Source: Escherichia coli (GTDB taxonomy: Bacteria > Pseudomonadota > Gammaproteobacteria > Enterobacterales > Enterobacteriaceae). Taken from it: a DNA stretch of 64,000 nucleotides. The stretch lies in the NCBI RefSeq assembly GCF_030384885.1, contig NZ_CP128613.1; one strand, 5' to 3'. Shown in pieces: positions 33,373-33,391 of the stretch. Position numbers and translations under genes: made by a program. Each line of letters starts with the position of its first letter. Within the stretch, counting starts at the first letter, position 1. Below the pieces are notes generated by a model. The model was not told the DNA's origin, did not search any database, and was given only the letters and a program-made list of their open reading frames with translations.

Positions 33373-33391
33373 GAATGGTAATCATTATTTT
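33373..33391. promoter_or_regulatory. Candidate Fur box in the yncE-yncD divergent promoter region
   Basis: gaatggtaatcattatttt resembles GATAATGATAATCATTATC and lies between a TonB-dependent receptor gene and yncE. Confidence 0.4.

Follow-up and report, generated by a model that had tools for sequence, protein, structure and literature searches.

The stretch at positions 33367-33391 of the window (the whole piece of Escherichia coli DNA analysed here, 64,000 nucleotides in length) is, with a probability of roughly 0.93, the Fur operator of the yncE promoter, at which Fe2+-Fur represses transcription in the classical manner. This operator is already known: it has been documented by ChIP-exo and ChIP-seq in K-12 and other strains (PMC10164565, PMC4676285, PMC7157518), and the conserved core Fur regulon is known to include yncE. 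The case for the window rests on a match of the site to the Fur motif far above background, its conservation across the enterobacteria, and published Fur occupancy and expression data that can be transferred to it directly. The case for any control of the divergent neighbour, yncD, from the same site is weak or conditional.

A 3.5-kb query around the site found matches in 5,413 of 5,426 complete genomes, and strain 2013C-4282 was 100% identical to the window over the 3.5 kb compared. In identical or near-identical E. coli genomes, RefSeq names the genes at the locus yncE, pqqU (formerly yncD) and mcbR, the first two of which flank the site (Table 1). YncE is a periplasmic 7-bladed beta-propeller of unknown function. 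The intergenic region has 0 differences from that of K-12 MG1655 (100% identity), so that results published for K-12 can be carried over to it base by base. The flanking genes are not equally close to K-12. There are 10 differences in the yncE coding sequence (99.1% identity, 0.9% diverged) and 109 in that of yncD/pqqU (94.8% identity, 5.2% diverged), 81 of the latter at third codon positions. Divergence from K-12 is thus mosaic, with 33528-35630 (yncD) far more diverged than 32225-33527, which suggests that the gene for the outer-membrane receptor has a history of recombination or diversification and that the control region is strongly constrained.

Table 1. Positions of genes and of known or candidate control elements at the yncE-yncD (pqqU) locus, in window coordinates.
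Feature	Position	Strand	Details
yncE coding sequence	32225..33286	(-)	353 aa; ORF list and RefSeq annotation of matching genomes
yncE-yncD (pqqU) intergenic region	33287-33527	divergent	241 bp
Candidate yncE -10, option B	33362..33367	(-)	TATAAC; predicted from sequence
Fur operator	33367..33391	(-)	Union of 33367-33385 (PWM), 33371-33389 (classical 19-mer) and 33373-33391 (sequence-only reading)
Second 7-1-7 repeat	33384-33370	yncE-sense	TGATTACcATTCCCA; 10/14 to TGATAATnATTATCA
First 7-1-7 repeat	33390-33376	yncE-sense	AAATAATgATTACCA; 11/14 to TGATAATnATTATCA
Candidate yncE promoter, option A	33375..33403	(-)	-35 TCCACA 33403-33398, 17-bp spacer, -10 TACCAT 33380-33375; a sequence-based prediction
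Candidate pqqU core promoter	33464-33469 and 33487-33492	(+)	TTTCCA and TACCAT (TAACAT in most genera), 17-bp spacer; predicted purely from conservation
yncD = pqqU coding sequence	33528..35630	(+)	700 aa; ORF list and RefSeq annotation; divergent neighbour of yncE

A Fur-box-like string had been claimed at 33373-33391 by a sequence-only reading of the window, and gaatggtaatcattatttt is found exactly there, inside the intergenic region. The site itself stands, while its register does not, the best registers being shifted by 2-6 bp. Aligned to the 19-bp consensus GATAATGATAATCATTATC, the best placement is 33371-33389 (GGGAATGGTAATCATTATT), which agrees at 15 of 19 positions; nowhere else in the 64 kb, on either strand, is 15/19 reached. 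The opposite strand at the same positions gives 14/19, as expected of a near-palindrome. A consensus search allowing up to three mismatches returned no match, the site having four mismatches to the idealised 19-mer.

So as not to lean on a remembered consensus, a position weight matrix (PWM) was built de novo with an unseeded Gibbs sampler from 14 canonical Fur-controlled promoter regions of MG1655 (fepA-fes, fepD-entS, fepB-entC, fhuA, fiu, fhuE, tonB, cirA, exbB, feoA, fecI, fhuF, sufA and yddA), with yncE left out. The ten best of 40 restarts converged on one score and yielded the motif ATGATAATCATTCTCATTT. Under this matrix the top site of the window is 33367-33385 on the minus strand (ATGATTACCATTCCCATTT), which scores 18.8 bits and stands about 6 bits above the second-best site in the 64 kb (12.9 bits). 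Leave-one-out scores of the 14 training sites spanned 9.9-21.5 bits (median 17.1), placing the yncE site above the median of the promoters that defined the motif. When the window was shuffled 100 times with dinucleotides preserved, the best score averaged 13.3 +/- 1.7 bits and never reached 18.8; nor did any of 2000 shuffled versions of the intergenic region reach it. The weight-matrix scoring that had been proposed as a check on the site thus returned a value far over background rather than a low one.

Other Fur-like matches in the window, at 11248, 56589, 40887, 26560, 30523 and 117, scored 11-13 bits, the level of the shuffled windows, and were rejected as chance. A Fur-like palindrome, AATAATGGTGATAACTATC, was also seen at 30521-30541, upstream of an ansP-like ORF (30560-32110, plus strand), where it matches the consensus at 14/19 positions on both strands and scores 11.9 bits. 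Published data give ansP as 2.6-fold down in an MG1655 fur mutant. Shuffled sequence gives scores of this size, and the palindrome is probably a chance occurrence.

On the yncE-sense strand the site reads GAGAAAATAATGATTACCATTCCCATTTATAAC and holds two overlapping 7-1-7 inverted repeats, offset by 6 bp. Overlapping repeats of this kind are usually read as two Fur dimers bound on opposite faces of the DNA. The operator as a whole lies 81-105 bp upstream of the yncE ATG.

The breadth of conservation was assessed with YncE in a scan of one genome per species, which gave 80 loci, including some from Escherichia, Citrobacter, Salmonella, Enterobacter, Klebsiella, Raoultella, Kluyvera, Leclercia, Lelliottia, Atlantibacter, Trabulsiella, Phytobacter and Pseudocitrobacter. 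Where the locus takes in the yncE start (79 loci), the best PWM score in the 350 bp upstream of the gene had a median of 17.3 bits, against 3.3 bits inside the yncE coding sequence. The orthologous box was the best match in 77 of these 79 loci, always in the same orientation. For one of the two exceptions only 79 nt are available upstream; in the other, Salmonella diarizonae, the top PWM match lies elsewhere, yet the orthologous box (AATGATTATTATTCTCAAC) is present in the alignment. The core AATGATT[AG][CT][CT]ATTC precedes yncE in every one of the 78 testable loci, which come from more than 20 enterobacterial genera. The distance from box to ATG is 74-84 bp in most loci and 35-39 bp in the three (Pseudescherichia vulneris, 'Escherichia sp. 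ESNIH1' and one Enterobacteriaceae MAG) that lack the stem-loop of the yncE 5' leader described below.

Within the intergenic region itself, an alignment of 23 species places the most conserved 19-nt block at 33369-33387, with a mean column identity of 94.7% compared with 68.5% region-wide and 83.5% for the ribosome-binding site block. Half of the invariant intergenic positions (14 of 28) fall in this 19-nt block. Promoter elements, as opposed to contacts with Fur, could account for part of its conservation.

Published occupancy data put Fur on the box. In W3110, the ChIP-exo peak P54, assigned to yncD/yncE, spans NC_007779.1 1524928-1524940 (PMC10164565, Dataset 2). The 13 bases fetched from that record, ACCATTCCCATTT, correspond to window 33367-33379 and fall inside the PWM site, in its promoter-proximal half. 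An MG1655 peak at 1521238-1521250 (old coordinates), with binding condition 'R', i.e., iron-replete only, maps to the same place within 1-2 bp and, according to the ChIP-exo table, is also present in the earlier data set of Seo et al. (PMC10164565). On the MG1655 sheet of that study the gene columns are off by one row against the coordinates from P37 on, as judged from known gene positions. We have therefore relied on the W3110 sheet, whose coordinates were checked against the sequence record. Fur ChIP signal upstream of yncE is also reported in PMC4676285, and likewise in strain CFT073.

The MG1655 data contain a second Fur-associated ChIP-exo peak nearby, at 1520944-1520980 (old coordinates), which corresponds to window ~33637-33673 or yncD codons ~37-49 and is flagged as missing from the earlier data set (PMC10164565). 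No Fur-like motif was found at this place inside yncD.

Expression data agree with the occupancy at the site. In fur mutants the log2 fold change of yncE is 3.10 in MG1655 (8.6-fold) and 8.14 in W3110 (~280-fold), and it lies between 3.6 and 5.5 in the other strains listed, so that the eight strains together span 3.1-8.1 (PMC10164565). At the protein level, a fur mutant overproduces YncE on western blots (PMC5120174). The gene is elsewhere described as 'known to be Fur-regulated' and as additionally activated by RyhB (PMC4666370), and McHugh 2003 appears as an earlier source placing it in the Fur regulon. Raised yncE expression through RyhB is reported in PMC4676285 as well, where data of the type Fur ChIP in a ryhB deletion or yncE in a fur ryhB double mutant are to be found. 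The gene is also reported as serum-induced and as carrying a Fur box, and a published table gives MarA among its regulators. Iron regulation through the Fur box, which the sequence-only reading had proposed, is thus borne out for yncE: Fur peaks fall on the site in ChIP, the gene is strongly derepressed when fur is mutated, and a fur mutant overproduces the protein.

Two placements of the yncE core promoter were considered. Option A would put the -10 element and spacer inside the Fur box; the blocks CTCCAC and TA[CT][CT]AT are nearly invariant and fixed in spacing across the 23 species. The TATAAC hexamer of option B is only moderately conserved and has no acceptable -35 element at 16-18 bp. 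Under option B transcription would begin at the base of the 5'-UTR hairpin, with the -35 element and spacer covered by the Fur box. A simple sigma-70 consensus scan of the intergenic region called no minus-strand promoter, for either option. Its only match, on the plus strand at 33322-33349, was set aside as promoter evidence, as was its 'terminator-like' match as evidence of a terminator, the latter being the yncE 5'-UTR hairpin on the other strand. With either placement, the expected consequence is occlusion by Fur.

Repression of yncE may then be pictured as follows. When iron is replete, Fe2+-Fur binds the AT-rich array of 21-25 bp at 33367-33391, probably as two dimers on the overlapping 7-1-7 repeats, a stoichiometry suggested by the arrangement of the repeats. 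The bound array, which by its position is predicted to overlap the yncE core promoter, would shut out RNA polymerase. With little iron, or with fur mutated, the site is free of Fur and yncE is strongly transcribed.

Co-regulation of the adjoining TonB-dependent receptor gene had also been implied, and here the claim is much weaker. YncD is PqqU, a high-affinity TonB-dependent importer of pyrroloquinoline quinone (PQQ), not of iron, and the RefSeq annotation agrees. It gives no help to growth under iron limitation or on ferric citrate, and according to two groups it is neither Fur-regulated nor iron-induced. The box could nevertheless be a shared bidirectional operator that also represses yncD/pqqU, in the manner of fepA-fes or fepB-entC, although we consider this unlikely. 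In its favour, the W3110 ChIP-exo peak is attributed to the yncE and yncD transcription units alike, and for W3110 and strain 042 the pan-regulon study counts yncD among the Fur targets, with log2 fold changes in the fur mutants of 2.95 (p 2.7e-51, ~8-fold) and 2.02 (~4-fold), respectively (PMC10164565). However, in MG1655, where the intergenic sequence is identical, yncD is unchanged, with a log2 fold change of 0.12 (p 0.39, not significant; PMC10164565), and the physiology of a PQQ importer speaks against iron control, as does the position of the box.

The box lies ~140 bp from the yncD ATG (its centre ~150 bp) and ~110-130 bp upstream of the candidate pqqU promoter blocks, i.e., at about -120, which is too far for occlusion. 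The candidate promoter, which includes invariant positions at 33464, 33465, 33487, 33490 and 33492, would itself sit ~30 nt upstream of the ATG. No second Fur-like site was found near yncD, the best PWM score there in the 241-bp region being 5.5 bits. Direct occlusion of the pqqU promoter by the box is unlikely because of this distance and because there is no such second site, and we infer that the box does not act on pqqU in this way. The modest derepression in W3110 and 042 leaves the link between yncD/pqqU and the Fur box weak or conditional. The layout resembles that of fepA-fes and fepB-entC, but both divergent operons are Fur-controlled in those systems, whereas here only the yncE arm is robustly so. 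In its expression yncD/pqqU is more like btuB, in that it encodes a cofactor importer and is not iron-induced in MG1655; it differs from btuB in adjoining a strong Fur operator and in showing a modest fur-dependent change in two of nine strains.

Two further elements were observed in the control region. The first is a stem-loop in the yncE 5' leader at 33339-33358 (minus strand), with a 7-bp stem and the loop C[C/G]ATGA. Compensatory changes occur at all 7 of its pairs across 73 enterobacterial sequences; at pair 38/45, for example, GC is found in 39 and AU in 24. No Rfam family was found for the intergenic region or the stem-loop, which may be tied to the activation of yncE by RyhB or to stabilisation of the mRNA at its 5' end. 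The second is a marbox-like block, ACGGCACAATACGTTAAGT, at 33440-33458 (minus strand), between the Fur box and the candidate pqqU promoter, with one mismatch to AYnGCACnnWnnRYYAAAYn. Its GCAC and CGTTAA are nearly invariant in the 23 species; the marbox pattern by itself occurs no more often in the window than chance would allow (3 matches against 1.35 expected).

It is conceivable, if rather doubtful, that the Fur box is one of several inputs to a conserved control region, together with the marbox-like block and the 5'-UTR hairpin, and that this region couples PQQ import (pqqU) to iron status in some strains or conditions. Fur would then have to act at a distance, through its oligomerisation, through supercoiling from divergent transcription or through a pqqU promoter lying further upstream. 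If true, such coupling would explain the derepression of yncD in W3110 and 042, which current reviews ignore.

It is very improbable that the site is instead the operator of another regulator (Zur, another member of the Fur family or an AT-binding factor) and that the effect of Fur is indirect, via RyhB or iron pools. RyhB does raise yncE expression, so that the iron response would be partly post-transcriptional, and MarA is also given as a regulator of the gene. However, the motif was found by a matrix trained on Fur promoters only, and Fur itself cross-links at the site. Moreover, RyhB acts positively on yncE and is itself repressed by Fur, so that its effect adds to direct repression and does not replace it. 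A further idea is that the box has no specific Fur function and is an AT-rich promoter sequence resembling a Fur site by chance, its conservation explained by -10-like hexamers (TACCAT, AATAAT) in an AT-rich region. Published ChIP and expression results in effect refute this, with base-resolution ChIP-exo peaks on the box and yncE among the genes most strongly derepressed in fur mutants, and the PWM score of the box is one that neither window nor intergenic shuffles attain.

The Fur operator of yncE in the window is in all substantive respects the known site of the K-12 yncE promoter: the locus and sequence are the same, and the published peak maps onto the box. The window comes from a different E. 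coli strain, in which the adjoining yncD allele is 5% diverged from K-12. It also belongs to the same motif family as the canonical Fur boxes of fhuA, fepA-fes, fepB-entC, cirA, fiu, fecI and fhuF, within whose range of scores it falls, and shares with them a promoter-proximal position. Unlike the products of those canonical iron-uptake genes, YncE has no demonstrated role in iron uptake.

The significance of these results beyond correct annotation is small. What they add to the established picture of yncE is the exact register of the operator, the breadth of its conservation (all testable loci, across the Enterobacteriaceae) and a caution regarding yncD: the TonB-dependent receptor that adjoins the operator should not be taken for an iron transporter, since it is a PQQ importer and is not robustly controlled by Fur. 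Since YncE serves as an antigen for vaccines and diagnostics in E. coli and Salmonella, its iron-dependent expression is of some practical relevance.
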